DNA of 35,022 bases from Pseudovirgaria hyperparasitica (GCA_010093815.1 ML996608.1); one strand, 5' to 3'; shown: positions 267-33,213, counted from the stretch's first letter. Notes: generated by a model from the sequence alone, not told the origin. Made by a program: numbers and translations.

Positions 267-321
267 CTGCCCTTTTCACAACGTTCATATCTGAAAACGA
301 GCCTGGGTACGTTTAGTAAAT

Positions 322-4845: not shown

Positions 4846-5180
4846 ATTACGGTCCGGCGCACGACCGATTTCAATATGGCGCAAGCCCAGTCTCAAGAAG
4901 CTGGCAATTAAGCTACTTCTGATGTTGACATACGACTTAACATCGATGATAGTGGAGTGCGCTGGTCGCGATACTCAACCAATATCGGCGAAAGTCAGGT
5001 AAAAAAATGGCCGATAGCGCTGGCCAAGCTGGGAAAGCAAGACACGATATTATAGGAAAGAATGATCTATTATGTCTCCTAAAGAGGAATTACAAAGTCT
5101 ATGACTTAAGATGTAGCTTTCGGTCAAACTCCTGAACGCCTTCGCTCATATTCAATAACTCGCTAAATCCAATCACTGCT

Positions 5181-10919: not shown

Positions 10920-11725
10920 GGTATAGTTTCTCTTCTATTTTTCTAGACCTTAATAATCTTATCTCTCTCTATTATAAGATTAGATTCTCCTTCCTTATCT
11001 AGTTAGAGTCTAGTTACTAATATTTAGGTTTTATAGATAAATAATATTATCTACTACTAGGGCTATACCCTAGCTAGTAAAGACTACGCTAACTAAGCGG
11101 TAAGTATTAGACTCTATATTATTTATATTAGACTCTACTAATTTACTTAGTTAAACCGAAGTTACTTCTACGCTTATTATACTCTAAGAAGAGTAAATTA
11201 CTAGAATCTATAAGCTAACTTAGGAACCCTTATTATAATAACCGCTAACTAAGTATTTTAGGCCGGAGATCGCTTATATTACTTATATAGTATAGACTTA
11301 GTTAGCTAATACTAGGGCGTAAGTTCTTTTCCCCTCTAGTTCTATGTTTTAATACCCGACTAATAGTTAGTTTAGACTAGATATCTATAAGGACCTCGTC
11401 TAGGTTCTAAAAGCTATAAAGGCTTTATAGTCTTTATAAGTAGCTAGTCTACTTCCTATATAAGACTATTTAGACTCTCTAGATAAATAATTACTAACTA
11501 TACTTTTAGTACTATTGCCTTCTAGATAACTACCTAGGTAACTAATATAGTAGTCTAGTAGAGTTAAATATAAGTTTAATTCTAGACTCTAGTTAAATTC
11601 TCTTACTAACCTTCTATTATAGTATAGGCGGTATTTCTCTAGTATTAGTATTAGAGCCCTATTAGGCTAACCCGTAGGCCTATTAGAATATACTAGCCTC
11701 TAGGCCTTTTCCTTTAGTATTTAGT
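10920..11725 (+). pseudogene. RIP-degenerated intron-rich gene relic, antisense and convergent to element C pol
   Basis: Six intron-shaped units: 10974-11036, 11100-11150, 11210-11261, 11319-11370, 11460-11509, 11538-11622. Each has a GTAAG/GTAAC (or RIPed T|ATAAG) donor, CTAAY branch point and TAG acceptor. Exon phases chain into one protein-like frame. Confidence 0.55.
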
Positions 11726-11799
11726 TCTCTCTCTCTTTTTTTTTATTCTTTTCTTTCTTATAGAATAAATTTCTTTTCTATTCTCTCTTAAGACTATAT

Positions 11800-12247
11800 A
11801 GTCTTTCTCTTCTTTATCTATATTCTATAGGTTACTAGATAGATATCTTCTTTTTCTTTATAGTCTATTACTCTAGTAGACCGTTATTTATCTTAGTAGG
11901 TCTGAACTTCTATTTAAACTTATCTAATATAGCGGTATCTATTAGATTTACTAAGGGTTTCTATATTAGATTATAATATCTAATCTATTTTACTAGGACT
12001 TCTCTTCTCTATTCTCGCCCTTTATTTCTAGTATATAGTATCTCTTTAATTTACTACTCTTCGTGTATCTTAATAAGTATAGAGTCTAGTTATTTATTAT
12101 TAGTATTCTATCTAGATAGAGGGTCTTTACTAGCTAGTCTAAGTAGATCTATATAGAATACTAAGTAGATATTACTAGAAAGCCCCCTTAGTCTAACGGA
12201 TACTAGTAATAGAACTTTATCTATAGTATATTTCGCGTACTTTAAGT
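11800..12247 (-). pseudogene. Element C pol, 3' part: integrase C-terminus plus chromodomain
   Basis: De-RIPed reading KKNLDSKHAKYTV..IHPVFHVDLLRPA.EDPLPGQ..EEWQIEEIL..EVLVKWIGY..PTWEPL. The frame is continuous with 33214+ once element A and one CTAGG copy are removed. End coordinate approximate. Confidence 0.85.
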
Positions 12248-12252
12248 CTAGG

Positions 12253-12390
12253 TGTTATGGATAGCGATGTCATGGCTTGGTCAAGTATTAAATTTATTAC
12301 TAGCTACTTTATAGAATCTACGTCTATCTATATCGGACCTTTAGTCCGTAGTTCTTACCGTTATTCATCTCCTTATTACTTTCTATAATA
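12253..12390 (-). repeat. Element A 3' LTR (138 bp)
   Basis: Matches 33071-33208 without indels (13 transitions by my count). Short purine tract (minus AGGGG, 12395-12399) is adjacent. Confidence 0.95.
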
Positions 12391-12908
12391 GCTACCCCTA
12401 ATTAACTTAAAACGATAAATTAACTCGAAATAATAATATCTTTTATAATAATACTAAAGTCCGTTACTCTAGTAGGCTTACTTTAATTAGGTGCTTGTGT
12501 AGATACTATGCGATATTACTTTCTAAGTATCGGTAGAAGTATTAATAGTATTATTATAATATAGCTCTACGTTTCTCCGGTTCTTACACGAGGATAGCTT
12601 CTATTACCTTTAGATTTATAGTAACTATCTAAAGTCTATTGTGAACCTCGAGGAAAGCTTCGAATTAGTTATCGGGGTATTTAAATATATGATTTAGTAC
12701 TATTCTTATTACTCTTATTTCTTTTATATTTATTTAATCCATTTATAGTATCGGTATAGCTATAGAGATCTAAGACTATTCGTATATATCGTCGTCTTTT
12801 CTTAGCTAATTTAAGTAAGTAGATTTAGTAGGAGTAGAAACTATAGGTATTAGAGTAATAATAGTTTCTATATTTATAGCCGCGGCGGCGCTTACGACGA
12901 CGGTAGTA

Positions 12909-12980
12909 GCTATAGTACTTATAATAACGTTAATCTCTATGTCGGCTATAGTACTTATAATAATATTAATATCTACGTCG
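12909..12980. repeat. 36-bp tandem duplication inside ORF3
   Basis: gctatagtacttataataa recurs at 12909 and 12945. Confidence 0.85.
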
Positions 12981-13837
12981 GTTACGGCATTAGTTTCTAC
13001 TAGTAGTATGGTTTTAGTAGCGGCTTCTTCTATTTAGGAGTCTTCTATATCATAGAATTCGTTTACTAACTCCGAGTTATTAGTATTCACGAGCTTCGCG
13101 AATTACTACCTTTATTTCTTAAACTTATTTAAGACTACTTCTTTATATATAACTTCTATTAGGTCGTTATTTATATTAGTATCTAATTCTCTAACTTCGA
13201 GTAGCTTAATATCTAGGCTCGATCCCTTATTATCTAAGAGCTTCTAGGCGTTTCGTTCTAGAAGTTCCTTAAACTAATACTCTAGCGTAGGAATTCTAGA
13301 AACTAGTATCTCTATCTAAATATTATTAAGTTTAGAATAGTAATTATAAGTACTAGCGGCCGCTACTTCATTAAAGAGCGTTTCGAAGGGTATTCCGTTT
13401 CTATTAGAAGCTTTATATAGTTTATCTTCTTTTATAGCGAGTAGATACTTAAAGCTATCTTAGATATATTACTAGTACCTTCTAATGATTTCTTTAATAT
13501 CTTATACGCCTACTTCTATAGCACGCTCTATGGTTTTCGTCACGCTATTAGGATATTATAGGTTTATAATTATCTCTATGAATCTTCGTATCTAGCCGGT
13601 GATTCTTAGTATTTATCTAATTAATTCTTTCCTAGATAAAGCATCTACCGTAGGCGTAGTAGTTACTATAGGCGTAGCTATTACTACGGGCGTAGCTATT
13701 TCTACTATCGTAGCTATCTTCTACGTAGCGATCTTTTATACTTCTACTATAAACCTTTTTAGAGTCTCCCTTATAATATCTTTTATCTAAGCTTCTATCT
13801 CTTTCTTATGGGCTAAGATAAGCGTGTTTATTTCCGC

Positions 13838-13939
13838 CTCTTATTAACTAATAGCGTTTACGGTTAACGCGGCGGGAATTAAGATAGACTCTTATTAACT
13901 AATAGCGTTTACGGTTAACGCGGTGGGAATTAAGGTAGG
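13838..13939. repeat. 51-bp tandem duplication inside ORF3
   Basis: ctcttattaactaatagcgtttacggttaacgcgg recurs at 13838 and 13889. Confidence 0.9.
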
Positions 13940-16900
13940 TAAGGTCGCGGGAATTAAGGTAGATCGTAGCTCCGTTAGCTCTATTAGAGTAGACGGAAGT
14001 TCTAACGACGTAGAAGCTACCTTAGATACTATTATTTTAGCGGTAATTAACTTTATCTTCTTTACTATTTTAGCTTTCTTTGCGGCGGTAGCTAGTATAG
14101 GTTTTATAATAGAGAGTAGAACCTTAATTACCTCTATTACCTTCGTAACTAGAGCCTATATTTCTTCTAGTATCCTTAATTTAATAACGCCTTCGGTTAG
14201 GTTTATTAGAACGTTTAAGGTAGATACTCCGGCCTTTAGTCCCTTAGCGATCTCTCTTACCGAAATAATTAGCTATACCTTATTAGTATTCGTGAATCCT
14301 TTAATTACGAAAAAGTTATCTATTTTATTAAAACTAGGTAGCGAGCTTATAGTAATAGTTTATATAGAGATAGTTTACGTAGAGGTTTCGGGTAGGGTTA
14401 AAGTATATCTACTAAGTAGGTGTCGTGGTAGGAGTTTATTAATTTTCCTACCCTATATAATTCGATCTTCGCGGGAACCGTCTTAAATAATTATCGGTAT
14501 AGTTATCTAGTCGTTCGTAATACCGTAATTTAAAGGATCTATAAACTATAGTATTTTTTTATAGGCCGTGGCGAATTTCCGTGTAAGGTCTTTAAGAGAG
14601 ACTACCGAGATTAGCTATATATATACTATATCTTCTATATATAGCGCGTGGACTTCTTTAAGTAGCTTTTCTTCTACTCCTTAATACTAGTCTACTATTA
14701 CGCTCTCTATTAGGCCCTATTTTCGAACCAAGTCTTAGAGTATAACCTTATTTAATGGTATCTATAAGTGTACTTCACGGACGTTTTTTATAATTCTAGC
14801 CTTATCTTCTAGGGAACTTAGACGGTAGATTAACTAGAACTAGTATCCGGACGATTATAGTACTATTATATAGTTACCGTTAAGTCCTTTAAGGCGTTAT
14901 ATAATATACTAGAATCTTACGTATCTATAGAGGATGTATTATTAGTATTTATATACCACGAGCGTCGCTTCTTAATTATATTATAATTACTATATGATTA
15001 AGTCTAGAGGTCCTATTACCTATTCCTAGGCGATGTCTCTTTACTACTAAGCTATAACAGTAACCTAAACTAATCCGTCCCTCCTTTACTATACGGCGTA
15101 GCGCCGAATATTCTTGCTATTTAAATCTTATAGCTAAGATACTAGTATATTCCACGCGTAACCATAGTAGCTCCGGATTTCCTCTATAGTATCCGTTATA
15201 AAGTATCGTGCCGGAATCTACGTATATTCTACTTAAGCTATTTCCTTTATAGAGTATCTATTACCTAGTTTTAAGAGCTACGCGATAATACTACTCTTAG
15301 ACGATTACTCTACCTTAAATCTCGTGCCTTTTAGAAGTGTAACGGTAAAGTTCCATTCCTTATCCGCGGATATTATACTCTCCTTAAGTTCTTCGTTAGA
15401 AACCGTGGCTAGAATCTTTATAAAGAATTCTTTTTACTTTAGAATATACCTAATTTCGTCTATAGGTACTAGAGTAAGTAAACCTAGGTAAAGACGGTAT
15501 AGATTTACTCCTAGGTCCGAAAATTCTAACTAATATTACCATATAACGACTGGTTCCTCCTCTTCTATTATAGGCGGCTTATATTTATAGTTAGAGTTAG
15601 AGATTATACTACCATCGAGAATGTTATAACGCATGGTACCGTGCCTTATACTATACTTATTATACGCCTTTTATTCGCCCTTTCTTATAATCTTAAGCTT
15701 ATTTTTCGTCTCGATTATAATATAATATAGTATAGTAATATTTAGTAGTATGGTTAGACCTTTTAGATCCTACGTAACTCCCTTATCTTTCTTATATAGA
15801 AGGTTAATCTATTAAAGCTTATGTAATACTATTTATAATACCTCTATATTCGAATAATAAACCCCGTACTTTAGAAGAGAAGGGTCCTACTAGGTAGGAT
15901 TCTTAATATTAGTATCGGTAAGAATCGGTCGCTTCTTATAGAGCACGTACTAACTAATAGTAAGATAGTAGAACTTTCTATTAACCGTAACCGGCTTTCC
16001 TTTATTATCGTAGTATAAGTATCTATCTTTATAGGGAGGGTCTAGCTTTCGCGGTAGAATATAGAAATTATCGCCTTCCTTCGTTATAAAAGGTAATACT
16101 TCCTTTAAAGACTAAGTCTTTGATACTTAAAATAATACTATAAATCTATTTATAATATTCTTCTAGTAAAAGATATTATTAAGTTTCCTATAGAATATTA
16201 ATGCTACGTAAATCTCGAGTTTATACTTATTAGAAAGGTAGATACCGTAAGTTAGTATCGCAAATCGGAGGCCCTTAACTATAATTCCTAAGGTAGAATA
16301 ATCATAGACTGGTTTTCGTTCGTTATATCTTCTATTAAAGCTTCCTTTTTATTCTATATTGATTCTAATACGCGCTTTATAGAATAGGAAGGTTTCTAAT
16401 TATATAGTTCTAATAATACTACTTATTATTCCTTTTACGCGAGGGTACTTTCTATATACCGCTCGAGTTATAATAGGAACTATATTATATTTTAAGGCGG
16501 TAGACTTCTTAATTAGTAACTTCTTACTCTTTATAGCCTTTTCTTCGTTAATTTCGCTCGCTAAATAACCTCTATTACCTTTATTTCCTTTCGGCTTTCG
16601 CTTACGACCTCTCTTAGTAACTGTTTTTAGTAGAGTTAAGGCGTTTTCCTTATCTAAGGTAACTTTAGCTTTATTATCTTTACTCCGTATTATCTTTATA
16701 TACTATAGATATAAGAGTAAGAAGGAATTAATAACTATTTAAGATTATAGATAAAACTTATTAAGCTAGAGTCTCTATAAGGTTAAGGTAGAGGATAGAA
16801 AGATAAGTTACGCGTTAAGTTAAGGATAAGTAAGTAGAAGGTAAATCGAGCTCGGTGGTAAGAGTGTTCGCGAGCGTAACGTTACTATTACTACCTTCCT

Positions 16901-17619
16901 TTAACGGTAGAGTGAATTCTCCTTTTACTAAGATTATATCTACTAGTACTAGATTTACGTCGTTAAGAGGACTAATAGCGGTAAGTATAGTAATAATATT
17001 ATTAACTACTAAATAGTATCGTGTTCGTTATCATTATTATATATAGTAATATATTTCTACTAACGGATACTAAACGGTAGTCTATAGCGTGTACTTAATA
17101 GCCGATTAAGATATATATAGTAAGGAGGGCATTCTCGGATCCTAGTATTAATCTATATAGATATAGTACTATGAGATTACTCCTTTATCGTCCTTACGGA
17201 ATTCGTATTATAATATATTAAGAATTCGTTTAAGCTCGTAGGTATATAGTAATAATTAATATTACTATATTTTTATTTACGGATTCTATTTCTCTTAGAC
17301 CGTTATACTATTTTACTTACTATTACTACGAATATTTAGGGGACATGATTATAGGAATAGTTATATACATAGGCGTAGTTTCGGTGAAGTATGTTTTTTA
17401 GATTAGAGATATATCTAATATTAGATATAATACTTTAATACTATTACACGTTTAACATTAGATATAATTCTTTTATTAATATAATTCTTTTATTATACGG
17501 TAGTACTTCTAAAGGGTAAACGCGAAAAGGAACGTATATATACAATTAATAATAATTCGGAATTATATCTATCTTAGGTAGGAACCTTTCGGTTTCTAAC
17601 CTAAGCTAGGATTTTAACG

Positions 17620-20600
17620 CTATATAAGAAACGCCTCTTAGTACTTAAGGCTATGAATTCCTTTTATCTAGGTCCTCTTTTACGGTTTCTTATCTCCGTT
17701 TTTAAGGTTAGATATATTATATTAAATTCCTCTCGAAGTTCGCGGGTATCTCTAAGGTCTTCTTTATTATACCATTAGTTATAAATTAGACCCTAGCCCT
17801 TCCATTTAACTAGGTACTATTTCTTCTTTATATTCTAATTCTAGCGTCGGTCGAGAAACCTTTTAATTTCATAAGACGGATATTCGTCTAGATCGTCTTC
17901 GGCGAAAACGCTAGGTAGTTTATTAGTACTATAGTTATATCTAAATAGATCCGTACCGGGCGGGTATAGTACTAGCTAGCTAACTAATACTACTAGGTGA
18001 ATTTTTACGCTCTCCGGAAGGTCGAGTTCGTATATATTATTTCTAATACGTTATAAAATTTTAAACGGACCGGTTCTCTAAATATCGAACTTCCTATTTA
18101 CGTGCCCGTGTACGCGGTAACTATAGTATAATTATAGATATACTTCGGCTCCGGGTTTTAGACGAAGAGGCTTATACTTCTTATTATATCGGTACTTTAT
18201 TATTACCGCTACGAAGCTAGTAGCTTCGGCGGCTATTTCTCTATTCTTTAAACGGAGCGATTTATAATCTTTAGGAGGTAATTTATGTAGTATATCCGCG
18301 CTATCTTTAACTTTAAAACCATATAATTACTTATTTAGAGACATGCTAGTAGTTTCATTTATAGCGTTATTTATAAAGCCTTATAGGAATAGTAAGTAGG
18401 TATCCTAATCTTCGTTAGGATTCTCGGTAACCACGAAACGAATTCTAATCTCTATAGATTAGTTTATTCTCTCTATCTAGCCGTCTATTTATAGGCGATA
18501 TACGGCGGACATTAGAAATTTAACTTCTAGCATGCTAAAGACCTTTTACTAGAAGGCTAAAAGCTATCTTATATCCCTATCTAAAATAATTTCAGCCGGA
18601 ATTCCCTAATCGTGTTTAACGAGGTTTAGTAGAATTAGACTAGCCTATTCTTTAGCGCCCTAGTTAGTGCGTCCTAGAACGAGAAGTACTCTTTTTATAG
18701 CTTTATAGGTAATAGGCGCTAGAGCGTCGTAACCCGTTACTATTTCAGGTAGAGCGGTAATAAGGTCGAGGTATATGGTTCTAAATGGTACGTGCTAAGT
18801 CGCGATAGGCGTGAAACTCCCGTATAGCTATTACCGAGAGGTCCTCACCTCGTTACATTACTTATAATATTTAATATAGGCCTTGACTTCTTTCGAAAGA
18901 TGGCGTACGTAGAAAGATACGGACACTCTCTTATAGAGTCTATTCTCTCCTTAATAGAAACTATAATTATAAAGTACGTTAAAGATCTCGCTAAGAAGGG
19001 CATAGGGAATATATAGCCTTTCCCGATTATTACCTCTATCGATGTTATAGATTATCTTATCTTTTATAAAGAATTTTAGTCTATTTAGAGGTTATGATTT
19101 CCCTTTTAGTAGTAATTTACCTTTAGAGAAGTTAACGTATATTAGTACGTTCTCGTCTCTATGTTAGAGAGTATCTTCCTTAATTAGTACTTCGCGTACT
19201 TTATTCCATGCCTCGTCGTCTTTATAGACTTTTTATAGGCGATTCTTAAATTTATCTACTATTTTAATCAAGACTACGTGATAGACGTAGGTGAGTTTAG
19301 TAATCGTCCCTTTATCGCTACCGATCGTAAAAGCCTATGCGATCTTATCTAGTATATTACCTTCTACGGCTAGCGCCGTACTTATAAGCCTACTAAGAGC
19401 ATCTAGTATAATATAGTTTCTACTAGGGCGGTATCGGATATCGAGCTTATATTATAAGAGATATTAAGCTACTCGGATAAGACGGATATTCTTATAGTCG
19501 GCGGCTATGCTAGAGAGCTTCGTCTAATATATAATAGCTATTATTATAGTATAGTCCGTGAATATAATAAACTATACTAATAATTTAACGAAGTGTTAAA
19601 GTTTAGTTACTAACTAAACTAGACTAGCTATTTCAAGTTCTATGGGCTAATAGTTTCGTTTAGTTACTATAATAGCTTTACTAAGAAATAATATTAGTTA
19701 TATTACTTCCCTTAGAAATAATTCTACCTGGCGTAGCCACGATATTCTTAGGGGGTTAAGTAGATTAAGATTAGTCTTATTAGGATTAACTAGATCGTTA
19801 ACCGGAACTAACGATATTACTAGATCTAGGTCCCCGCGAACGTGGTATATAAAGACTCTAAAGCTATACTCTTTTAAAGCGTTAACGTCTAGAAACGTAC
19901 GGCTTACCGGCTTATAGTAATAATAGAAGATCGGGTCATCCTATAGTCCTTATATGGCTTAAAATGATTTAATAAGTGCTTTAGTCTATGGAACTAGCCT
20001 TTTTAAGGCCTATACTTTTTGCTAAGTCTTTTTACGAGGGGCATAGCGGAAGAGCTTAGTACTAGCTTTTAGTAGCGGTAAGACTAACTATATATAGTAT
20101 AGTAACTATCCTTATAGATATCCTGCGATTCCTAGGTATTATTTAAGTACTATAGTATCTTTTAGGAACTATATTTCTTTTAGAGCTATAATTCTTTCTA
20201 CCTTTAAAGATAGTCCGAAGGCGTTAACTCTTTTTCTAAGAATTATAGTACTTAGATACCCGACGAACGTCTTGGTTACGGCGAGAGACATATTAAAGTT
20301 TAATAGTATACTCTATAGTTACCGTAAATAATAAATATACTCTTCGAATATCTTAGAGAAAACTACTATATCGTCTATATAGGCTTTTACCTATAGGAAT
20401 CCTCGTAGAAGATTATTAAGTTCCCGTTACACGTACTAGACTAAATTAACGTAGCCCATAGTAAGAACTTTTAGGTATTCTTAATCTCTATAGATGTTTA
20501 CCGTGAATTACTTACGATCTTCTTCTCGTACTAACTATTAGTAGAATATACTTATGGCGTCTATTATTATAATATAGTGGTAATCTCGGCTAGCCTAGAG

Positions 20601-23600
20601 TATATTATCTATTCTTATTAACGGGTAGGAATCTTTAACGGTAATTACATTAAGGCCTCTAATATTAATTACTACGCGTGGTTTCCATATCAGCCTATTT
20701 ATCTTTAGATCATAGACCTCTCTCTAGATAACAAAAACTAGGGAGCTAAATTAGGTAGGCTTTTTACTCTAACCTATTTTATCGTTATTATAAAGCCCGT
20801 TAAAGGTTTTATTAATTACTTTACGGTCCTAAGGGCCGACGTTATATACTCGAGTATATAACTTCTTAAGTTCTCGCTAGTCCTCTATAAGGATAAGCTT
20901 TACTTCCCTAGAGTTTACAATAGATTTTTTATCTTACTATAACTCTATAAACTCTTTAATAAGTTCTTTATATTTTATAGCCTTCTCTTCCCTACTATAG
21001 AGTATTATTCCGTTTAGGAGACGTGTCTCGAGCTTAGAGTTAATATTCGCGGCTTCTAAGGGAGGAAGGGTAGCGAGATCTACGTTAGTATTGGAGATTT
21101 AGTAGTATCCTATAATATCTAGTTCGCGGATTTTACTAAGCACCGTATTCCTTAGAATTACGAGTGTCTTATTTCCGTTATTCTTAATTACGATTCCTCT
21201 ACTACTAGAGTCGATAACTACTATATAAATTATAGCTTATCGCTTTCTAGTAGCGGAGAGGTACTCTTTCGTAGGTTCGAAAAGTATATCGCGATTATTT
21301 AGGAGGTTACATGTATCTATAAGAACTACACCTCTTAAATTAGGCTTAATAGATACTAAGTACTACGCTCTTACTATAACATTTAACTACTTCTTATATC
21401 TTAGGCGGACACTTATAGGAGCTACTATATTTTAGCTGTATAGAAAGGTAATCGTACGGTTTTAAACTTTAATATCTATTTCTTCTAGACTAATAGTATC
21501 TATATCTATTAGTAGTTTTAGTACTAGGTTTTTAATAATACGTGCTTCGTATTTAATAGTAACTATAATATCGTTTCCTTCTACGGTAGTAGATACTATA
21601 AGTATTATTTTAATAGACTCGTTACTATTATAAACCTTATTACCGATACCTATAACTACTATTAGGTGTATAAGTTTTATAACATGCTTTTTATAATCTA
21701 GTAGGACTATAGCTAGCTAGTTTCTATCCACGAGACTTAGCTTTACTCTAGTATCTACGATTATTTACTTAGGCTCTATGGTCCCGTTTAATATTACGTT
21801 TATTATAATATAGTTCTAATAACGAAAGCGATAGTCTTTCGTTCCTATCCTTTTTATAGTACTCTTAATAACTTATAGTACTAGTAGAGGCGATAGAAAC
21901 TCGTCTACCATATATACGTGATCTACTGGTTTCTTCGGATACTTTTCTATAATATACTAATATAGCTTATTATTAGAAGGATACTTTTATCTATAGACGC
22001 GATAGTTCCTCGCTATAGTCCTTTTACTCTTCTACGGTTTCTTAAGCGATAGTGCTAGTAGAGTCTTAACTTCCTTAGTTCTTATGAAGAAAACTCTAGC
22101 TAACTTCTTATAAGGTTCCTTGTCCGACTAGCTTTCTTTAGCTTACTCTTAAGCTTATCCGCCCTAATCTTTATCCGGTAAGTCTTCTTTATTTTACGAT
22201 CCTTCTTAATTAAGAAACTCTACTAGGACTATATTATAATAGGCGCGTTACGGCTTTATATAAGGTTGCCTCTCGACTTATATAGAAGTCGTTATAGTCT
22301 TTTCGAAACTCTTTAGCTAATACTTACCATTCCCTTTATATAGGCGACGGTCTACTTTATATAGGCGACGGTCTCTACCTTAATACTAGTTTTAACTACG
22401 GTCTTTACTAGACCTTTACTCGTTTATCTAAGAAGATATAACTTAGATTATTTTCTCGCTTTCTTTTATTATCTAAAACTTATTAGGGCGGTCCTCTCGT
22501 CCGCCGCTACTACTATATTATATCCCGCGGTTCCCTTAAAAGTAGTCGTTTCCGACTTCTTTTTCTTTATAAGAATAGCGGTTTAACGGATACTAGCCTT
22601 ATAACGCTTTACTAGAATAGGAATAGTCGAACTTACTCTACTTATAGAGTTTACGCTAGGTCTATAACTTTTACTCGAGCTATTTATAAAAGGTATCTAG
22701 ATTAGTATTAGATCCGGGTTCCTCTATACTTACCCTAAATCTTAGGTCGAGCTTATTCTAGGTCTATACTATAATAAGTACTTTAGATTTTAAATTTGCT
22801 TCTTTATAAGCCCTAAGTACTTTTATAACATAGTTAGTTATACTCTAGCCTCTATATAAGTTCTCGGGGCTATATAATATGCCTTAGAGTCTCTTTAAGG
22901 CGGCACTTAGAGGTATAGAGAATCTCTTTTCGAGTTTCTTAACCTAGCGCTTAAGTCTATCTCCGCTAGTAAGACTTAACTTTATAGCGTCGCTTAATTA
23001 AGAGCTATACCAAATTTACGCCGTGCCTCTAAGATACTTATAGAGATTATAACGAATGATTTTCGCAGGGTATATCTACTAATAGTTCCTTATTATGTTA
23101 ATAAACGGCTGAACGGATCTATAATAGACCTTTCTATTCTTATTATAAACATCTTCTATTCTTAAAGGATCTATACTCGGATCGAAGAATCTAATATCCT
23201 CCGTCCTAAACTTCGTGTCTCTTAGATTTAAGCTATCGTTATCTTTATAGTCTCTAGTTTCCGTAGTTCGCCGGCGATAATACGGGAGTATATATAATCT
23301 ACGACGGTAACCACAAGCTCTATTATTATCTCCCTATAGATTATCGTCTAAACCTTCGCTTAGATCGTTATTATTCCTTAAAACTCTTACTATAGACTAA
23401 GCTTACCTATAGTAGTCGTTTCTAGACGGACGGTCTCTAGAAAGTTCTTCTTTATCTCTTCCCTAAGGCCTTTTCTAAGAGGGCGCGACTTAGCTAGCTC
23501 TACTTTATTCTACTAGAGGATTTACCCTCTTACGATTATTAAGTACCGCTAAAACTATTATTATAATTTACGCGATTATTTCTACGCTTAGCATATTAGG

Positions 23601-23855
23601 CTAGGCTTACTAAGCTATAATAGGAACTGGAATTAGAGCCGGAATTAGAGGCTCGAGACTTTAAGGCGTTCCGACTTACTCTCTACTTCTCTCTACGCCT
23701 TAGCTCGAGCTTCCTCTTTAATAAGGATTCTCTAGTACTATAATCGCCTTATAAGGATTAGAGATTATCGTCTCGCGAGAATTAGAGTTCTCTAGTCTTA
23801 CGGGTTCGTCGTGAAACTCGAAGTCTTATAGTCTTACGGGCCTTTTCTTTAGTAT
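17620..23855 (-). pseudogene. Element A fused gag-pol polyprotein (~2080 codons): gag, C2H2 finger, protease, RT, RNase H, integrase, chromodomain
   Basis: Landmarks checked (gag core, C2H2, protease, RT, integrase, chromodomain) share one frame (2 mod 3). De-RIPed readings: EDIGFFDP..LRGTAQIWY gag core (~23200-23000), VDTG protease (~21755), AY(I/V)DDIVVFS RT (20381-20370), RNase H DAS and NYWPTELE (~19880-19630), integrase HPQTDGQTER (~18490), chromodomain YLVKWKG (~17805). Ends approximate. Confidence 0.9.
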
Positions 23856-24549
23856 AGTAGGAACTTTAATTAATAATAGAGGGGACGAGGAAGGTAAATT
23901 TACTTCTCTTAGCTATACGAAGTTTCTAAAGTTACTAAAATATTTAGATTAACGGAAATTTACTACTAGCCTTTTAACCTTTATAGCTTTAGTAGTCGCT
24001 AGACGTATTCTATAATCTTTATTTATAAGATAGTTCTAGTTAGGAGAATATCTATCTTTCTAAGGCTATTTACCCCTAGACTATAAACGATTTCGATTTC
24101 TTAAGACTTCTAGATATACGTAGGTAATACCTCGAAGTAAGATAAGGGTATAGAGGTTTAATTCATGTAGTAGACTATCTTTAAAGTAATAAATAAGTTA
24201 ATAAGCTATTTTAATAACTTACTCTAATAGCTTAGAAATTAGTTCCTTCTATAATACTAGTAAGGGAGCTAGTATATCTTATATATTCCCGAGTATACTA
24301 AGAATATCAGCCGTAGGAGGCGCGGACGTAAGCTTCTCTAGTATACTTAGGTAATTAGAAATGTTTAGTAGGAACCTACTCTAACCTTAGTAGCTTACGG
24401 AAACCGAGGCTTCGTATACTAATTATCTCGTCTAATTAGTACTAACCTATTCCTATAAAGTAGGGTTTAACTAGTACTAAGTATAACCGGTTATAGTATA
24501 GTATCGTATTCCTTACTTAATAGGAACTAGAGAATCGTAGAGAGCTCGA

Positions 24550-24787
24550 TGTAAAGAGTGAAGACGTGGGATAGTAGTCTAATAGTTCATAGAGAGACAT
24601 AGGAATATATTTATAGAGTAATCTTACTCTTATACGAGGTTGATTCCTAACGAGTAGAAATCGGTTTATACGGTCTACTTATATAGTAACCTCGCTTAAC
24701 TCAGCTAACTTAACCTAGCTCTAGCCACTACGTGGCTACATGGATTAGAATAGTCTATATAGGTCTATTATAGTTCCCGTCCTAATA
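24550..24787 (-). repeat. Element B 3' LTR (238 bp)
   Basis: Matches 32357-32594 without indels (13 transitions by my count). Confidence 0.95.
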
Positions 24788-25268
24788 ATATCCTTCTTCT
24801 TTTTATGCTTCGCCCCGAAGCACTTAAGTATATATAATCCTAAGTCTCTATAATCTATCGTGTACCTATATATCCGTAACTAAGTTCCTATAACGTTATA
24901 ACCATCCTTAATATAGGTGAACTCGAGATTCTAGTTTACTTTTATTAGTTTATGCACGCGCTTATCCCTTGCTTCGTGGCTACTACCTAGGATATATAAT
25001 TACTACTTTAGTCGAGTATATATTTAGCTTCGCTCACCTTTAATTTTATTCTCTAGTATATCCACCTCGCTCTTAAGGTAAGTCGTTAATTTATATACTA
25101 TCTTCTCTAGTTTAGGTTTAGAAGGGTCTATAGTAGTCTATTCTTATTAGAACCGGTCCTATATAACCTATTCGCGTTATTACGGTTACTAATTTAGCTT
25201 CATTAATCGCCGTTAAGGGTAGACGAATATTCCTTTCTTAGATCTCTAGCTAATATATATATATATAG

Positions 25269-26581
25269 ATATCTAATACTAGTCCTATCTCTAAGCCTGC
25301 CTCCTCCTCTCGTAAGACTTACTCTAAAGGTATCGTCTCCTCCCCGGCCACGCCGGCTAAGAAGCCTACCTATCGCGGTAGTATAAAGGCGCGCTCTAAG
25401 TCGGAGAAGAGAGTAGCTAGGGCTGCTACTACTACTACCTCTACTACTAATATAGCCACTAGTTACTCTAATCTAGGTAATCCTAGTACTAAACTTATGG
25501 ATAAAGTGGTTATAGGTTCTCCTCTCACTCTAAAGCGCACGCCGCCTACTCTACCTCCTCTAGAGGATAAAGAAGATCTCGTTATAGATAATAATCGCGA
25601 GCCCTCGCGCTTACCCACGCCGCCGCCTCGCCGCTCTTCCTTCCGGTCTAATATAGACTAATTTAGTTACTCTAGGTCCTTTTAGGACCTTAATATTCGC
25701 TCTAAACCCTAGCCTACTAATAATAAGACCTAGGTCGCTAAGGATACTAAACGTAGTTACGGTTTACGCCATAGAAAAACAGCGAACTACGGTTTAATAT
25801 ACTATAAGTATATTAAGGGCTATACGGCCGGCTCTAAATATCTCTTTCACTCTAACTCTAGTATTAGCTACTACTCTACTAACCGCGACGGGCCTATACG
25901 CCCTATCTTTACTCTACCTACCCGCTACCGCCGCTATACCGTGACTAGTAAGACTTATCTATAGGTAAGTATAATAGGCTATCTTAATCTAGTATGATCT
26001 AAAGTAGTCCGCGCTAATATATTCTTAGATTTCTATATATATATAAGATATATATAACGATCTTCGCGTCCGTGAGACCCTCGGGGGTCCTTATAGCCGC
26101 CTACCTACTATATAGAGGGAGTTTAGGGAGCGCTATAAGCTCTTTCTAGAGGTTATTAAAGTATAAGTTACGAGCACGTTAATTATTTTTAACACCTATT
26201 AATTTTTCTAGCCGCCGCGAGATCCCTAGCGCCTAGGCTATCTATTCTAGGGAGTCTATCCTAGCTATAGAGGCCGTAGAGAGGATTTACTCTATCCCCC
26301 CCCGTCCGTCTCGCGCTACTAACGGATCTTATAAGAGGTCTACTATTTCTCCCTCTAAGTCGCCTCGTAAGAGGGTATATATTCCCTTCTAGATTATTCT
26401 AGATCGTATTAGCTAACTTTAGACCTAGTCGCTACGCTCCGGTACTTAAGGCTCTTCCCTCTAGGCTCTAACGGATTAGGTTATTACTCTAGAGGCTAAG
26501 GTCGTCGTCCTCCGCCGCCATATCGTACGGTTAGAGAGAACTATACTAGAGATTAGGACGGATAATAAGATAGAGGAGTAG
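25269..26581 (+). pseudogene. Element B antisense accessory gene, 3 exons (25269-25964, 26029-26162, 26212-26581), ~400 codons; basic/disordered N-terminus, putative Cys-rich motif, C-terminal coiled coil
   Basis: First ~125 codons are stop-free despite RIP. Intron 25965-26028 is GTAAGT..GCTAAT..TAG. Intron 26163-26211 has a RIPed donor (T|ATAAGT) and supplies exactly the needed phase change. Exons total 1200 nt. Confidence 0.7.
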
Positions 26582-27039
26582 CTCTATGGTTCTAGCTCTA
26601 TATATTGGCTCTATGCCTAGCTCTATATATTCTAGATCTACTATAGGTGGTACGCGCCGGCTCTATTTACCTAGCTTTTATCCGTTTTAGTCCTTTTTAG
26701 ACCGTTTAGATACCCGTCGGCTAGTTTCTAGTAATTTAATTCTTAACTTAACGATATTATATATACGCTCGCTTAGCTTATAACTATCGGTTTCTATATT
26801 CTGATTTTCCTTAAGTTACCTAAGTGTAGGTACCATATATAAATTAGTTTATCTCTAGAAATTCTATTAGAGTACCTAAACTAGTAGCCTAGTAGTTATT
26901 AGTTCGGGTACTCTAACCTTTTATATTTCGTGTTAAGAGTTTAATTCTATAGTAGGGTACCTTTTTTTAGGTTCTTAGTCCTATGTTTTTCTCATATATA
27001 ATAGTCCATATTAGTCCATTCTAGACTCTTCTATATTAT

Positions 27040-30000
27040 TCTATTATAGTATGTCGCGTTACGTTCCTAAAATAGTTATTTACGCTTTCTTCGCGTCTAG
27101 TAACCGTGCGACGCTTGAATTATAGGACTACTATATAGAGTTTTCCTAGTGCGCGTCTAGATTTCCTAGTTTGGTACTTCGTTCTCTACGGTATCCTTCT
27201 TCTTTTTATAACGACCGCGACGTCGCTATACTTATATTAATAATATACTATTCTACATCTTTTGCTTATACGCAGCCATTATAGAACTTAAGATATATAC
27301 CGCTAGTTCCTAGGTGTCCTTATTCTTAGTATAGTCCTTCTAACGGATTCTATATTTCTAAACACCGTCTTTATCGATCCTATATTCGATAATATAGTCT
27401 ACTTTAAACACGTCTAGTCTATCTTAGGGTATAATAGAGTATAACTACACGTTCGTGCGGCCATATACGTTAGGTTAAAATCTTTTAAGTAGTAAGACGT
27501 AGAACACGTTATAGATTCTTATATCGCTTCCTAAGTCGAGCTTATAGACTCTTATACCGATATAACGTTTAATTCGGAAGGGACTAGCCATTTTATAATT
27601 AAGCTTCTTATTTACTCGCGACGTTCGTATATTATAGACGTTAAGAAGGACCTTATCGTCCTCCTCGTACGTCTAATCCTTAGCTAATCTATTATAGTAC
27701 TTCGTATACGAGTCGTTTACTTATTAGATTATAGCGTAATAGTTACGTACGGTTTTAAAGATTTTAATCGCTAATTCCTAAGCGTGGACGTTCACGTCTA
27801 TTATTCGATTAAATTAGACCGTCTAAGGCTTAAAACCTATCCTTAGACTACGTCCGAGGTTCGCCTAGAAAGGTATAATACCTATCATACTATAACGACT
27901 ATTATTATATACGAACTCTACTATACTTAGTAGGGAGGCCTAGTCGTTCTACTTAAAATTATAGAATACGCGTAGGTAGGCCTCGAGCGTCTAGTTCTAT
28001 CGCTCTATCTAGCTATCCGTCTAAGGATAAAATGCTATAGACATGTTTCTATTTATACTTACCATTTTATAGAATAACGTCTAGAATTTAGACGTAAAGG
28101 TACTTTCTCGGTCCGTAACGATCCTTTTTAGTATACTATGGACCTTAATAATCTCGTTCTAGAACACCTACGCTAGTTCTTTAGATATAATCATCTTCTA
28201 TACTAGGATATATCTAGACATCTTTATAAGTCTATCCACGATAATAAGAATAGAATTATAACTTATCCTAAGCATCTCGCTTAGAGATAAGTTAACTATA
28301 AAGTCTATAGTAACGTCTTCCTATATAAAGAGGGGGGCTGAAAGAGGCTATAAATTTCTATATAGCTTATGCCTAGGGGCCTTTATTCTTTAATAAATTA
28401 GATAAGTAGCTATCTATTCTTCGACGTACTTAGGTATATCTTTCTAAAAATAGTACTAACGAATTAAGCTTAGGGTACGTATATACCTAAAGTGTCCTAC
28501 TAGGTTAGCGTTATAGTATCGGCTAACTACGTTAAATCGCGCGTTATCTATTAGTATATAGTACTTTCTATCGTAGTAAAGCAAGCCGTCCACGAAGGTC
28601 TACTTATAGTCTACTTTAGTCCGTAATAACCCATCTTACTATATTTTATATAACTTTAAAACTATCGGGTCTATCTTCTATAGATCTATAATTAACTAGG
28701 CGAGGTTAATTAGATATTTACGCCGGGTATTATCGCCCTTCCTAATAGCGCTAATAAACGGCCTACTAGGGACTTCGGTACCGCGTCTTTAGTTACCGGC
28801 TTTAGTCTTAGAGATTTGATTACCGGTATCGACGTTAGTATCTCGCTAATCATCTAATAACTTAAAATCTAACCTCGTCCTTAAGAGTTAGGCCTATAGC
28901 TACTCTAGAACTCTATGGCTACTATAATTCTAGGCGCCTTCTTTATAGTTAGGTCTTCTTAACATTCTATTAGCTAGGTTTATACTTCTAGGTTAATAGT
29001 AGATTATAAAGTGAAAGTTCGTAAGCTACTTAGTCTATTAGATCTATTAATGGTTTAAAACCGTTATACTTATAAACCCCTTTAAGTTATAGTAATTAGT
29101 TAGTAACTCGACGTTATACATGGCACCTTTAAGATAATATCGCCACTATTTAAACGACTCTACTATTACTAGTAGCTCTTAGTTATAGATAGTATATCTA
29201 GTCTTAATATCGACTATTTTACGTAAGAAGAACGTAACTAGATACCATTAGACCTTTTTAGACTTAGTTAGTCTAGGCTAGGAGAGAATACCTAAGATTA
29301 TAAATTCTAACGCATCGGTTTTAACGTAGATAGGTTTAGTCGGGTCGAAGTACACTAGTAATAGGGCAGTTATAAATGCCTCTTTGATTTTCTTAAAGGA
29401 GGCCCTTTCGCCTTCCGATAATTCTATAGGCTACGATTTAATATTATACTATTTCTATCTACCGCGGACCGTAATAGATGAATCTATAGTAGTAGTACGC
29501 GTGTTAAGCGGTGCTACTAGCCGGGAGAAATACTTAATGAATTTTTAGTAGTAATTAGTAAATCTAATAAAGACACGTATATCTCGAACCGATCTTAGTT
29601 TAGGCTAGTCCACGATAGTAGCGACCCTGTCCCTTTCTATGGTTATACCTTGATTAGTAATAACGAAGCTAAGGAAGTTAATATGGTCCTGGTGGAACTC
29701 GTATTTAGATAGCTTAATATATAGCTTATATTTTTCTAGCCTATCTAGGACTACACGTACGTGCTAGATGTGTTCTTCTTCGTTATTAGAGAAGATAAGG
29801 ATATTATTAAGGTATATAATGCACGTCGTGTTAAGTAGGCCTACTAGCGCGTTATTAATATATACTTAGAAGGTTCCTAGCGCGTTAGTTAGTCTAAAAG
29901 GGACTACTATATACTTAAAGTATCTATAACGGGTCCTAAACGCCGTTTTCTACTCATCGCCCTTCTTAATATATAGGCGGTAGTAGGTATCGCGTAGATC

Positions 30001-30935
30001 GAGCTTAGTAAAGATCTTCACGCGCTCTAGTCTATTAATAGACTTAGAGATAAGAGGTAGTAGGTAACGATTCTTTCGCGTAATATTATTTAGACTATAG
30101 TAGTCGATACATAGACGGAGACTTCTATCCTTCTTCTTTATAAAGAGGATTAGAGCTCTAGCTAGGGATATACTAGGCCTAATCTATCCTTATATAAGGT
30201 TCTTTTCGATGTATTCTCGGAGGACCTATAGCTCGGGTTCTAATAGAGGGTAGATAGGTCCGTATAGGGGTTATTAACCGTCTTTAAGGTTAATAGTAAG
30301 GTCGGTAGATTAGTATTAAGGTAATTTAGACGAGTCAATCGCTAACGCGATATATTAGTATATTTTATACTAATATAGTAGGTTTTCGTCTACTTTAATA
30401 CTAAGCTCTCTATTTTAAGTAAGTAAGAGGACGTAGATAGCGGAGATTACCTTTTCGTAGTCCTTCTAGAATTATTCGTTGTCGACTAGCTATACTAGGT
30501 TCTATTATAGTAGGTATATACGCTAGCCAGCTGTTTTCTAGATGAAGTCTAGTTTCGGGTTATATTTTTTAAGCTATAGTATACCGAGGATCATGTCGAA
30601 GGGACTATCTACTATAATAAAGGTTAAGTAGTAGGGTTTCCACTTCCCCCCGCTATTCTAGATGCTATATTTAATAGTATAGATACTCTACGATTTAATA
30701 GGACCGTCGATACTATAGAAGGTAGCACCTATTAGTACTTAAATATTAACGTTAAGTTCTCGTGCTTATTAAGTCGATATAACGTTAGTAGCTAAACCGC
30801 TATCGAGTATTATAGTCTAATGTTATCTATAAGGGACCTCGATAGGCCTAGCCTATAGTTTAATATACTAGTTAGCTGGTTATCCCTCTATTTTAGTTAC
30901 GTCTATAAGTCACGAGGGTTCCTCGTAGGTAGTTA
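27040..30935 (-). pseudogene. Element B pol: protease, RT, RNase H, integrase, chromodomain
   Basis: De-RIPed readings: LDSG protease (~30804), YLDDILIFS RT (~29814; now YLNNILIFS), ETDAS..ELLAIV RNase H (~29320-29160), STAFHPQTDGQTERQNQ integrase (~28030), KKLDHKMAGPF (~27590), chromodomain YRIRWKDY..DTWE (~27330). Confidence 0.92.
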
Positions 30936-30942
30936 GTTTTTT
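30912..30942 (-). promoter_or_regulatory. -1 programmed ribosomal frameshift signal (gag->pol) of element B
   Basis: Slippery A AAA AAC (30942-30936) in the gag frame directly before the stop codon. A 9-nt spacer is followed by stem-loop ACGAGG-AAC-CCTCGT (30926-30912). Pol motifs lie in the -1 frame. Confidence 0.75.
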
Positions 30943-32315
30943 ATATCGTGTACCGGGTAGTTAGGCGCGATATATCCTAGCTACTAGCACTTATAGTATA
31001 TAACTAACTTAGTATCTATATTAGTATTCGGTGGTTTCCCTAAGCGGCACTCGGGTACTATATGGTCTATCCTACTATAGATATAGTAGGTGACTTTAGG
31101 TCGTTTATATAAGTCGTTTCTCGCGTCTTAATATATTAACTAGTGGAAAGATCCACGGTACGGGCCTCGTCTTCTCGAGTTCGTAGAGTGGTAGCGCCTA
31201 CGAGGTATTCCGCGCGATCTATTACTAAACTAGTCCTCTTTAGATAATTTTATATCGGATTAGATTAATAGAGATAGTCGTGCGTCTATACGACGTTAGT
31301 TATTTATTATACGCTAATATCGTTCTACGAGATTCGCGAGTACCTAAAGATTAGTAGAGATAGACGTTATAAGGTCGATGCGTTCCTTTATACTTGGGTT
31401 AAGGGACCTTTTAAAGTCGTCGTATTATTAAACTATATAATCTTCCTTAGCTTCTCTCTAAAGAGGTCGGAGATATTTAAGGAGTTATAACGGGGATTAT
31501 CTCTCTCACTATTAAGTCTTAAAGATATAGCTCTAAGTCTATTTATATCGCTCGGCTCTATCGCCGAAGTATTAAAGAAGGAATTTAGTAAACGTGTCCT
31601 AGTTATACGTATCCTTAGGGTGTTTAATTTAATATGCTATCTAACGTTTAGATGGCGTTAGGTCTAGGTAGTTCTATACGAACCTAATCTTATTACTATC
31701 GTTCGTAAATAGGTGGAAGAATCAGCTATACTAGTAAGCCTATTCGTGAAAGCTCCTTCTAGTTTTACCGTTAAAGTAAGGTAGTTTCTTAGGCTAAGGT
31801 AACTAGGATAGTAATAGACTTGGTTAGACTATTTCGGCTTAAGTTAATCCATATTAGTATAGATTAGTTACTACTAGCACTAAAGCGCGTAGTACGGCTT
31901 CGAGTCTAGCGGTTTATCCTTACGCTTTATCGAGTTTACGAAGTTACTACTCGAGCTAAGCCTAACGCTATCTCTCCGTATATAGCTTAGTATATACGTT
32001 ATCGTAAGGCGTGGTTAATGTTAGTTGGTTCTAACGAATTAATTCGTTAACGTTAATAGGGTCTAGTCTTATAGTAAGGATAGGTCTAGTATAGTATAAA
32101 CTAGACCGCGATAGAGTATGATGGACTCCTTCCTTATTATCTAGGTAATCTTCTATAGTTATATAGAATACCGTACTAGTTATTAGTGCGATAGCCTATA
32201 GGGTATACTTATTAGTAGAGGTGGTTATAGGGAGACTATTCTCTTCGTTTAGATTTAGAGAGAGTCTCTTATATAAGGTAGTACCACGGGTATTATGGCG
32301 CGTAGTAGGAGCCAT
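30933..32315 (-). pseudogene. Element B gag with two CCHC zinc knuckles
   Basis: Intact ATG at 32315 (MAPTTRHNTR). De-RIPed knuckles CYICGRMDHIAPEC (~31090-31045) and CYKCQQPGHIAPNC (~31010-30955). Confidence 0.85.
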
Positions 32316-32356
32316 CTCTATAAGCTACCGTCGTGCTATATAGAGAGAAATCAAAA

Positions 32357-32594
32357 TATAAAGAGTGAAGACGTGGGATAGTAGTCTAATAGTTTATAGA
32401 GAGATATAGGAATGTATTTATAGAGTAATCTTACTCTTATACGAGGTTGATTCCTAATGAGTAGGAATCGGTTTATACGGTCTACTTATATAGTAACCTC
32501 GCTTAACTTAGCTAACTTAACCTAGCTCTGGCCACTACGTGGCTACATGGATTAGAATGGTCTATATAGGTCCGTTATGGTTCCCGTCCTAACA
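32357..32594 (-). repeat. Element B 5' LTR (238 bp)
   Basis: Pair of 24550-24787; followed by TSD CTCGA. Confidence 0.95.
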
Positions 32595-33058
32595 CTCGAT
32601 CCTTTTAATGCACGACTTATTTAGAAACACTAGTACTTATACTACTTTTTCGTAATCCTCTAGAACGAGTCTCACGGAATTTAGTATAGTTAGAATAAGG
32701 TAAGGCCTTTAATATAGATACTTATTCCTGTTTTCCTCTAGTAGTAAATCCTTTATTTATCGTTCCCTTAGCTCCTTCCTTAGGACTTTTAGTTATAATT
32801 TTATACTCTTACGAGTCTTAATAATAGTAACGGTAATAAACGTTATCTAGTACCTAGTATTCTTTTATCCTTACTAATTATCTTACTATACTTATAAACT
32901 TCTTTTACTAAATTTTACGGAAGCGTCTTCCGTTTACTAAGTCGGGATATTAACGTCTTTTAATTCGGCTTCGGAGAACTAGTACGTTAGGGCGTTAGTA
33001 TCTTATATTTAACTAGTACTATCTTTCTTTCGAAAATAATTAGCTAGTAGTATACTTT

Positions 33059-33067
33059 TAGCTACTA
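33059..33067 (-). promoter_or_regulatory. Putative tRNA-iMet-type primer binding site of element A
   Basis: Minus strand reads TAGTAGCTA 3 nt inside the 5' LTR. This de-RIPs to TGGTAGCTG, resembling the Ty1/Ty3 PBS start TGGTAGC. Confidence 0.45.
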
Positions 33068-33070
33068 AGA

Positions 33071-33208
33071 TATTATGGATAGCGATGTTATGGCTTAGTT
33101 AAGTATTAAATTTATTACTAGCTACTTCATAGAACCTACGTCTATCTATATCGAACCTTTAGTCCGTAGTTCTTACCGTTATTCGTCTCCTTGTTACTTT
33201 CCGTGACA
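33071..33208 (-). repeat. Element A 5' LTR (138 bp)
   Basis: Pair of 12253-12390; followed by TSD CTAGG. Confidence 0.95.
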
Positions 33209-33213
33209 CTAGG

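Follow-up and report, generated by a model that had tools for sequence, protein, structure and literature searches.

A probable third gene of a fungal Ty3/Gypsy chromovirus, surviving behind pol, before the 3′ long terminal repeat, as a remnant inactivated by repeat-induced point mutation

The window analysed here is a stretch of 35,022 nucleotides from Pseudovirgaria hyperparasitica (GCA_010093815.1, ML996608.1), the minus strand of which carries a Ty3/Gypsy chromovirus, called element A below. Between the gag-pol frame of this element and its 3′ long terminal repeat (LTR) lies a region that is probably the remnant of a third, element-borne gene of ~1,350-1,430 codons, inactivated by repeat-induced point mutation (RIP) and carried as lineage-specific cargo in a variable slot. 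We refer to it as ORF3, for third open reading frame (ORF):

12407..16705, minus strand: ORF3 remnant, 1433 codons with 92 RIP-type stops; likely original coding span ~16699 to 12650

An earlier note, made from the sequence of the window, had described this region as a continuous sense-strand frame ending at the polypurine tract (PPT). Its central point, a former protein-coding region on the sense strand between chromovirus pol and the 3′ LTR, was supported by purine periodicity and stop counts. Neither the continuity nor the proposed end was: 92 stops interrupt the 1433 codons, the longest stop-free ORF in 10000-24000 (195 aa) lies on the plus strand, opposite to ORF3, and the coding signal fades well before the PPT, at ~12650.

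RIP changes CpA and TpG to TpA and produces transitions only. Bases 1-10000 of the window have a normal composition (GC 45-51%); from ~10000 to the window end the DNA is AT-rich (GC 27-41%), TGA is near-absent in all frames and stops are nearly all TAA or TAG, which is the signature of near-saturating RIP. Stop-free ORFs are therefore uninformative here, and we compared stop numbers between frames instead. In the ORF3 region the ORF3 frame contained 92 stops, the two remaining minus frames 204 and 146, and the plus frames 123, 78 and 180. All of the 92 were TAA (48) or TAG (44), as fits RIP of CAR and TGG codons. Stop density was 6.4% of codons in ORF3, 5.8% in the pol of element A and 6.2% in its gag-pol, while Gln and Trp, the residues whose codons RIP turns into stops, amount to 5.5-7.8% in intact relatives.

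Because RIP makes transitions only, we then examined the fraction of purines versus pyrimidines by codon position, a measure blind to such changes. Purine fractions in the ORF3 frame were 0.645, 0.474 and 0.542 at positions 1, 2 and 3; the position-1 value was 0.605 in the pol of A and 0.581 in that of a second element, B, and no plus-strand frame showed such a pattern. Divided into blocks of 900 nt, the ORF3 frame scored highest in 5/5 blocks and significantly in four (p=0.0065, 0.19, 4.7e-7, 0.0012 and 0.00055). By the same test the pol of A gave p=2e-5. That the periodicity is a by-product of tandem repeats and RIP-skewed composition in non-coding DNA is hardly credible: the strongest values (0.74-0.82) do fall in the repeat-rich, low-complexity part at 12750-14400, yet with tandem repeats masked the signal remained over ~4.1 kb (chi-square 56.8, p=4.6e-13), the first 900 nt, which are free of repeats, were periodic too, the deficit of stops was limited to one frame, and the adjacent, equally RIPed spacer of 960 nt gave no signal:

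16706..17666, minus strand: spacer between pol and ORF3, non-coding, no codon periodicity (p=0.64), stops in all frames

The periodicity of ORF3 fades below ~12650; its original stop is thus likely to have been 200-300 nt short of the LTR, as in relatives. Taken with the stop counts, 12407-16705 is what an open gene of ~1,400 codons looks like after RIP.

The composition of ORF3 was read in RIP-proof codon classes, which divide it into four parts. The first is charged or polar with a basic start (46% of the first 100 codons belong to the charged or polar class), and the second, codons 101-520 (~420 codons), has the same class make-up as pol. The third is stop-rich and of the Gln/Trp/Arg/aromatic class, and the fourth is an Ala/Thr/Val/Ile-class low-complexity region containing the tandem repeats, followed by a mixed charged tail. 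The KRGRKRKP stretch and the in-frame repeats of 51, 36 and 18 bp proposed in the earlier note were all found, the former near 16612:

16576..16621, minus strand: basic N-terminal stretch, reading KRGRKRKPKGNKGNRG
13838..13938, minus strand: in-frame tandem repeat, 51 bp, two copies
13651..13717, minus strand: in-frame tandem repeat, 18 bp, 3.7 copies; another copy of the element is without 36 nt here
12909..12981, minus strand: in-frame tandem repeat, 36 bp, two copies; another copy of the element differs here by a net 63 nt

Likewise confirmed was a tract rich in pyrimidines that closes with TAG at 16705-16703, and based on this one tract a putative splice acceptor can be placed there. A nuclear rather than envelope protein is a putative reading, founded on an N-terminus that is basic and has no hydrophobic run. 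The position of ORF3 is indeed that of env in retroviruses and errantiviruses, between pol and the 3′ LTR, and two stretches with 17-19 of 20 codons carrying a pyrimidine at position 2, one of them near the C-terminus (codons 1258-1290), are possibly hydrophobic. An envelope-like glycoprotein of the errantivirus or Athila type is nevertheless extremely improbable. The first 70 codons hold no run of hydrophobic-class codons and nothing resembling a signal peptide (RIP blurs hydrophobicity), the two stretches mean little because gag-pol reaches an equal maximum by the same measure (18/20), no homology to env was detected, and the corresponding ORFs of relatives are not envelope-like.

Pfam searches in all six frames of 12001-24600 gave no match outside pol, and ORF3 searched in four pieces at E<=10 gave none either, viral glycoproteins included. 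With phmmer, 1200 ORF3 residues (the last 233 codons excluded), stops being read as X, had 0 matches at E<=1e-3 among 1.84 billion representatives. ORF3 thus has no recognisable family, in line with the earlier note. Since the pol of A, equally RIPed and read in the same way, reaches E=3e-180, RIP alone would not hide a relative as conserved as pol. This absence of a cellular homologue counts against a transduced cellular gene or gene fragment, copied in a short burst and never useful to the element, an explanation that we consider unlikely and to which we return with the copies and relatives of element A. In Smith-Waterman comparison, ORF3 matched none of the remaining unexplained stretches in the window better than shuffled sequences did.

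We next delimited the element that encloses ORF3. Self-comparison of the window revealed just two repeat pairs, the LTRs of A and those of B, and the parts of element A are as follows:

12253-33208, minus strand: element A, Ty3/Gypsy chromovirus, 12,906 bp once element B is removed
33071..33208, minus strand: 5′ LTR of A, 138 bp, starting TGTCACGG and ending in ATAATA (RIPed form of an end in ACA)
12253..12390, minus strand: 3′ LTR of A, starting TATTATAG, which is TGTCACGG altered by transitions only, and ending in ACA
33209..33213, minus strand: target site duplication (TSD) CCTAG, upstream copy; the same five bases stand at 12248-12252
12248..12252, minus strand: TSD CCTAG, downstream copy, matching 33209-33213
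33061..33067, minus strand: TAGTAGC, resembling a primer-binding site, 3 nt past the 5′ LTR
32600..33060, minus strand: leader and probable start of gag-pol, contiguous with 24544 downwards after removal of B and one TSD copy
17667..24544, minus strand: gag-pol of A in a single frame, with gag-like region, protease, reverse transcriptase (~20681-20259), RNase H, integrase, chromodomain and basic tail
24550..32594, minus strand: element B, a separate Gypsy element inside the N-terminal region of A gag-pol, 8,045 bp with 238-bp LTRs

The two LTRs of A are 94% identical, and identical in purine/pyrimidine space. At the position of the primer site, loose ends of other copies carry TGGTAGC, a type of site which we take to be that of initiator tRNA-Met. 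The PPT of A is weak (AGGGG). In one minus frame, with stops read as X, Pfam recognised RVT_1, RT_RNaseH, Integrase_H2C2, SH3_Tf2-1 and Chromo in this order. The Chromo match (17873-17724, E=9.7e-4) scored 19.5 bits, under the cut-off of 25.1 bits, as expected after RIP, and PF00385 is present in the relatives aligned to this region. Element A thus has the domain order of pol, the chromodomain C-terminal to integrase, and the LTRs, TSD and primer-binding site of a Ty3/Gypsy chromovirus. A pol with chromodomain on the minus strand agrees with the earlier note; its end was misplaced there at ~17620, as the basic tail stops near 17667. The region from reverse transcriptase to chromodomain comprises 1,011 codons and is shorter than ORF3.

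Element A itself sits in a third Gypsy element, C, on the minus strand (33214-35022 and 10000-12247), which it splits in the C-terminal region of integrase. RNase H and integrase core of C are at 34871-33702 in a frame that reaches the 5′ LTR of A, and directly past the 3′ LTR this frame resumes with the integrase end and a recognisable chromodomain. Because the frame of C continues across it, A is a clean insertion, and because its LTRs, its TSD and the continuity of C enclose the segment, ORF3 is inside A, between the pol tail (~17667) and the 3′ LTR found at 12390-12253, where the earlier note had it. It is an additional sense ORF within the LTRs, downstream of and separate from pol.

A nested element with ends of its own was looked for in particular. 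No terminal inverted repeat, LTR pair or TSD brackets ORF3, nor do any paired repeats, inverted or direct, that stand out from the AT-rich background, so that the segment is not a nested element. It is also very improbable that one or two older, different repeats, with the coding region of an unrelated element, became lodged downstream of pol in the family's ancestor. The greater length of the spacer in A (960 nt, versus ~330 nt in the relatives L001, L047 and L059) and the weak, stop-rich block in the middle of ORF3 would suit such a composite, and nested insertions are the explanation given for extra domains of fungal LTR elements in the part of Muszewska et al. 2011 (PMC3248453) considered here. 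Against it, six-frame searches detected no transposase, reverse transcriptase or other Pfam domain in ORF3 although the equally RIPed domains of pol were found, the orientation is that of A, one frame is used on either side of the weak block, and relatives have the same layout.

Other copies of ORF3 were sought among contigs from two runs (X1 and X2) of one sample, at >=80% identity to the stretch. Contig pieces, 4591 in X1 and 2487 in X2, covered every bin of 10011-24318. ORF3 was as abundant as pol (summed depth in X1, 3054-4774 in ORF3 bins versus 2972-5081 in pol bins). Variant places in X1 were 1800 transitions versus 126 transversions; since the differences are overwhelmingly transitions, the copies are many and differently RIPed. 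One 60-kb contig shows the end of ORF3, 233 diverged letters and the LTR. ORF3 is thus part of a multi-copy RIPed family, the contigs being short and the linkage of pol to ORF3 in other copies indirect. Among the differences listed (12/48 indel rows and 40/2249 differences), four ORF3 indels keep the frame, namely 6 nt, 36 nt, 63 nt (68-5) and a -1/+1 pair three bases apart. Another copy differs in the spacer by a net 53 nt (86 minus 33), which is no multiple of 3. Frame-keeping indels are only suggestive of constraint. They nonetheless speak against a transduced gene of no use to the element, to which the even coverage is no obstacle, as it shows co-amplification and not function.

To place element A among its relatives, its pol, with stops read as X, was compared with longer proteins, giving 15 matches. 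In the best ten of these (P0001-P0010), which are 1,921-2,485 aa long and encoded by contigs of 6.7-11.9 kb, gag and pol are fused and intact; the value of E=3e-180 given above is that of P0001. The gag-pol frame of A matches intact relatives over 23507-17667, and a RIP-aware alignment to P0001, P0002 and P0003 spans 23507-20703. The leader and probable gag-pol start had no significant match to the poorly conserved N-termini of the relatives. P0001-P0004 end in a basic tail of 50-130 aa past the chromodomain, with a GRP (AT-hook-like) core in P0001 and P0004. Before the protease these four carry a CxxC...HxxxH-type motif (HxxxH in three, HxxxC in one). Its CxxC...H part is kept between gag and protease in all of P0001-P0010 (residues 944-960 of P0001, with invariant C944, C947 and H960), and this motif, found where a CCHC knuckle would be usual, resembles a finger of the C2H2 type.

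Metagenome contigs were scanned with the gag-pol alignment, which confirmed 542/606 candidate stretches, and 74 loci were kept. In a quick maximum-likelihood tree, in which the branch of A is long and its composition skewed, A groups with P0001 and L001 (=P0002) with a Shimodaira-Hasegawa-like approximate likelihood ratio (SH-aLRT) of 100. Sister to these are P0004, P0005 and the L050/L011 pair, and L047 branches deeper. The pol of L001 is 35% identical to the RIPed pol of A. Elements of this clade encode gag and pol in one frame of ~2,100-2,500 aa; their LTRs, 138-170 bp long, begin with TGTCAYG, and their primer site reads TGGTAGC.

The same gag-pol-ORF3 layout exists in an un-RIPed relative, L001, the closest one with DNA. 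There the pol stop is followed by 328 untranslated nt and an ATG opening MPPKGSKQRR, in a frame that runs off the contig. The other contig end holds a 629-aa ORF whose stop lies 236 nt before GGGGGAC and the directly adjoining TGTCATG of a 157-bp LTR, and after this LTR come AT, TGGTAGC and gag-pol. As P0018, from another source, joins this N-terminus to the conserved domain of the 629-aa ORF in one protein, the two pieces of L001 form one ORF3 of ~750 aa in a contig that is permuted or a tandem assembly. This type of ORF3 is kept at 51-55% identity across three independent contigs, which indicates that at least this cargo has been maintained, contrary to what is expected of a gene that was never useful. 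A conserved Cys/Trp-rich domain of ~250 aa, without Pfam match, is seen in P0016, P0017 and P0018 (L001:14-1900). The family had three members in 5.8 billion clusters and none among 5652 candidates of the longer-protein search, and P0017 gave 0.80 in the ESM Atlas, which is in the range of chance. It is an orphan protein of retroelements.

L001 resembles A in the TGTCAYG start of its LTR, the G-rich PPT, the TGGTAGC site, and an ORF3 that follows an untranslated spacer and has a basic N-terminus with PKG[S/N]K; it differs in the length of ORF3 and spacer (~750 aa and 328 nt) and in the absence of significant ORF3 similarity. L047 shares the same hallmarks and the slot. Its identical ends of 73 nt define a unit of 12,494 nt, which is intact and contains gag, pol, a spacer of 332 nt and a giant ORF3 of 1,681 aa. 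The stop of the latter is 212 nt before GGGGAGGGGGCA and the immediately following TGTCATGG, the start of a 170-bp LTR, after which TGGTAGC is found. The ORF3 of L047 (L047:7192-12234) encodes an SF1/Upf1-like helicase with AAA_11 (E=4.6e-7) and AAA_12 (E=4.1e-9) and, as in A, has in-frame tandem repeats near the C-terminus (75 nt, three copies). Its two domains have no match in the ORF3 of A, and L047 branches deeper. The spacer is 328-332 nt long in L001, L047 and L059. GTAAGT, the fungal 5′-splice-site consensus, stands 12-14 nt before the ORF3 ATG in L001 (L001:10126-10142) and L047 (L047:7180-7194) and was absent from the other five ORF3-bearing loci checked.

Shorter, conserved ORFs occur at the same place in L011/L009 (196 aa) and L050/L020 (293 aa), starting 74-134 nt past pol and 29% identical between the two pairs. 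The ORF3s of L001, L047 and L011/L050 did not match one another. We surveyed the slot in 26 loci with GC >=0.44 and >=1 kb after pol, and a sense ATG-ORF of >=190 aa starting within 1.2 kb of pol was present in 8/26. Two of these eight are parts of other elements. The downstream ORFs of L030 and L045 were rejected as cargo, being pieces of the gag-pol of other elements. L042, L044 and L054 have ATG-ORFs of 200-263 aa past pol, that of L042 looking like a tandem repeat. Among relatives, a position of ORF3 inside the element is established for L001 and L047. Thus the relatives have a slot between pol and the PPT which is filled by different, unrelated ORFs or by none. Mutually unrelated ORF3s, one with a plainly cellular-type SF1 helicase domain, and the many relatives without any ORF3 fit repeated capture, and in this respect speak for the transduced gene without use to the element that other observations above contradict.

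We then searched for similarity between the ORF3 of A and the ORFs of its relatives. Conventional comparisons gave one blastp row at E=4, nothing by phmmer and nothing by tblastn against the 74 loci. For RIP-aware comparison we used a log-odds matrix in which the score of a RIPed codon with an amino acid derives from the codons that it may have been before RIP; this matrix raised the score of the pol control from 1433 to 1670. With it, spacer and ORF3 of A were aligned to 2296 ORFs in three frames (6888 comparisons); the top score, 79, fell in a frame other than that of ORF3 and is noise, and the ORF3 of L047 was not among the top 25. Against P0016-P0018 and the N-terminal piece of L001, 50-188 of 300 shuffles reached the observed scores. 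A profile of the L001-type ORF3 scored below 0 bits against the frames of A, and its conserved domain (GECEHW..YQWLKL..MRPMGRGVY) showed no similarity to the ORF3 of A. In alignments of purine/pyrimidine codon classes the pol control was detected even in RIPed relatives (690-850, the median being 63). ORF3 reached at most 108 (shuffled sequences: mean 68.5, sd 9.3, maximum 100.9), in a gap-ridden alignment upstream of the pol of L059 that was rejected. For an SF1 helicase, Pfam AAA_11 and AAA_12 were not detected in the ORF3 of A and a strict GPPGTGKT-type Walker-A was absent in purine/pyrimidine space, in which looser Walker-A patterns are uninformative. The sole resemblance, which is not significant, was that of PKGNK in A to PKGSK at the beginning of ORF3 of the L001 type; RIP can bring about a change of Ser to Asn.

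A third gene borne by element A as cargo remains the reading that we favour, and several points weigh against it. The periodicity is not significant in block 15805-14906 (p=0.19), and at codons 500-600, which hold 17 stops, another frame has fewer; the weak middle may be rich in Gln, may have been frameshifted twice in this copy or may separate two ORFs. Indels that keep the frame number only four, two of which sit in tandem repeats with a unit that is a multiple of 3. The window offers a single copy of A and not a consensus. The slot is dispensable, since many relatives have no ORF after pol (18/26 loci, e.g. L002, L005, L025, L033 and L072). Finally, as no homologue was found even among the ORF3s of relatives, a common origin with any of these is unproven.

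If ORF3 was indeed cargo, it would have been acquired into the slot by this lineage, carried along as the family multiplied, and then silenced by RIP together with the rest of the element. Whether the intact ORF3 made an accessory protein serving the element, from a spliced or internally started RNA of its own, appears to us about evenly balanced. Simple read-through from pol is ruled out and a messenger of its own needed, because the spacer of 330-960 nt is closed in all frames. The textbook route of expression for a gene located downstream of pol, before the 3′ LTR, is by way of a spliced subgenomic RNA. In the putative protein a basic N-terminus, possibly binding nucleic acid or chromatin, would have been followed by a part of globular composition and a charged tail rich in repeats, and the protein might have acted on the RNA of the element, on its integration or on host silencing, presumably without any envelope role. 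A wider proposal, tentative and in our view rather doubtful, is that the clade keeps a modular cargo slot behind a conserved untranslated spacer, occupied by the 1,681-aa SF1/Upf1-like helicase, the ~750-aa orphan or the ~1,400-codon orphan, the subgenomic RNAs of which would serve the element in a fungal counterpart of complex retroviruses. Such cargo may counter host RNA surveillance or silencing, or steer integration.

Extra ORFs are well known in LTR elements of plants, insects and rotifers. In the plant Tat/Athila lineages, Retrosat2 and LTR elements of bdelloid rotifers, lineage-specific ORFs stand beside gag-pol (PMC5408684, PMC3485330, PMC9289625, as far as the portions relied on here extend). 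They resemble ORF3 in being lineage-specific, without assigned function and apparently captured repeatedly, and differ in belonging to other host kingdoms and other Gypsy lineages; the plant ones are moreover often antisense, whereas that of A is sense. The fungal chromoviruses of Novikova et al. 2010 (PMC2864245), which range from 4.4 to >13 kb, share with A, according to the sections drawn on, the order of reverse transcriptase, RNase H, integrase and chromodomain, the short LTRs, the 5-bp TSD and the fused gag-pol. The legend to Figure 3 there lists an 'add. ORF with unknown function' without analysing it. The description of ORF3 in the earlier note as undescribed therefore holds for analysis, as far as that legend goes, and not for the existence of an extra fungal Gypsy ORF, which is already drawn. 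Distinctive of A with respect to those elements are the ~1,400 codons of its ORF and a slot content that varies within its clade. Our literature search returned no paper joining a third open reading frame with a fungal gag-pol retrotransposon, and a cargo slot of up to 1,400-1,700 codons, helicase included, in one clade of fungal chromoviruses appears not to have been analysed previously in the literature searched.

The prevailing picture of LTR retrotransposons in fungi is one of plain gag-pol elements, and where RIPed copies contain long internal stretches, these are usually dismissed as junk or nested insertions. The opposite view is taken here: by a transition-blind test the stretch was a gene, its exact boundaries are those of the element itself, and relatives point to a recurrent cargo site. 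Were the cargo genes functional, they would represent untapped element-encoded factors, a helicase among them, with a bearing on the contest between retroelements and fungal genome defence. The window copy being dead, its direct biological effect today is probably nil.

Element B has its TSD, TCGAG, at 24545-24549 and 32595-32599 and a clear PPT (AAAAAGAAGAAGGA). Between its pol and 3′ LTR lie ~2.6 kb (24788-27400) in which Pfam found no match and codon periodicity is only weak (p=0.02). Their AT content is lower (GC ~0.39-0.41), and on the opposite strand they contain a low-complexity ORF of 130 aa at 25269-25661.

In the part of the window with normal GC, 322-9194 holds several long ORFs, e.g. 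314 aa at 322-1266 (-), 283 aa at 2336-3187 (-) and 318 aa at 5181-6137 (-), which are presumably host genes. In two further runs under the same species label (X3 and X4), contigs matched only 9564-9880 and none joined across the element. The edge of the normal-GC region, 9560-9880, is itself repeated: its depth far exceeds that of the flanking sequence, variant letters are numerous, and there is an inverted joint at 9692/9782.

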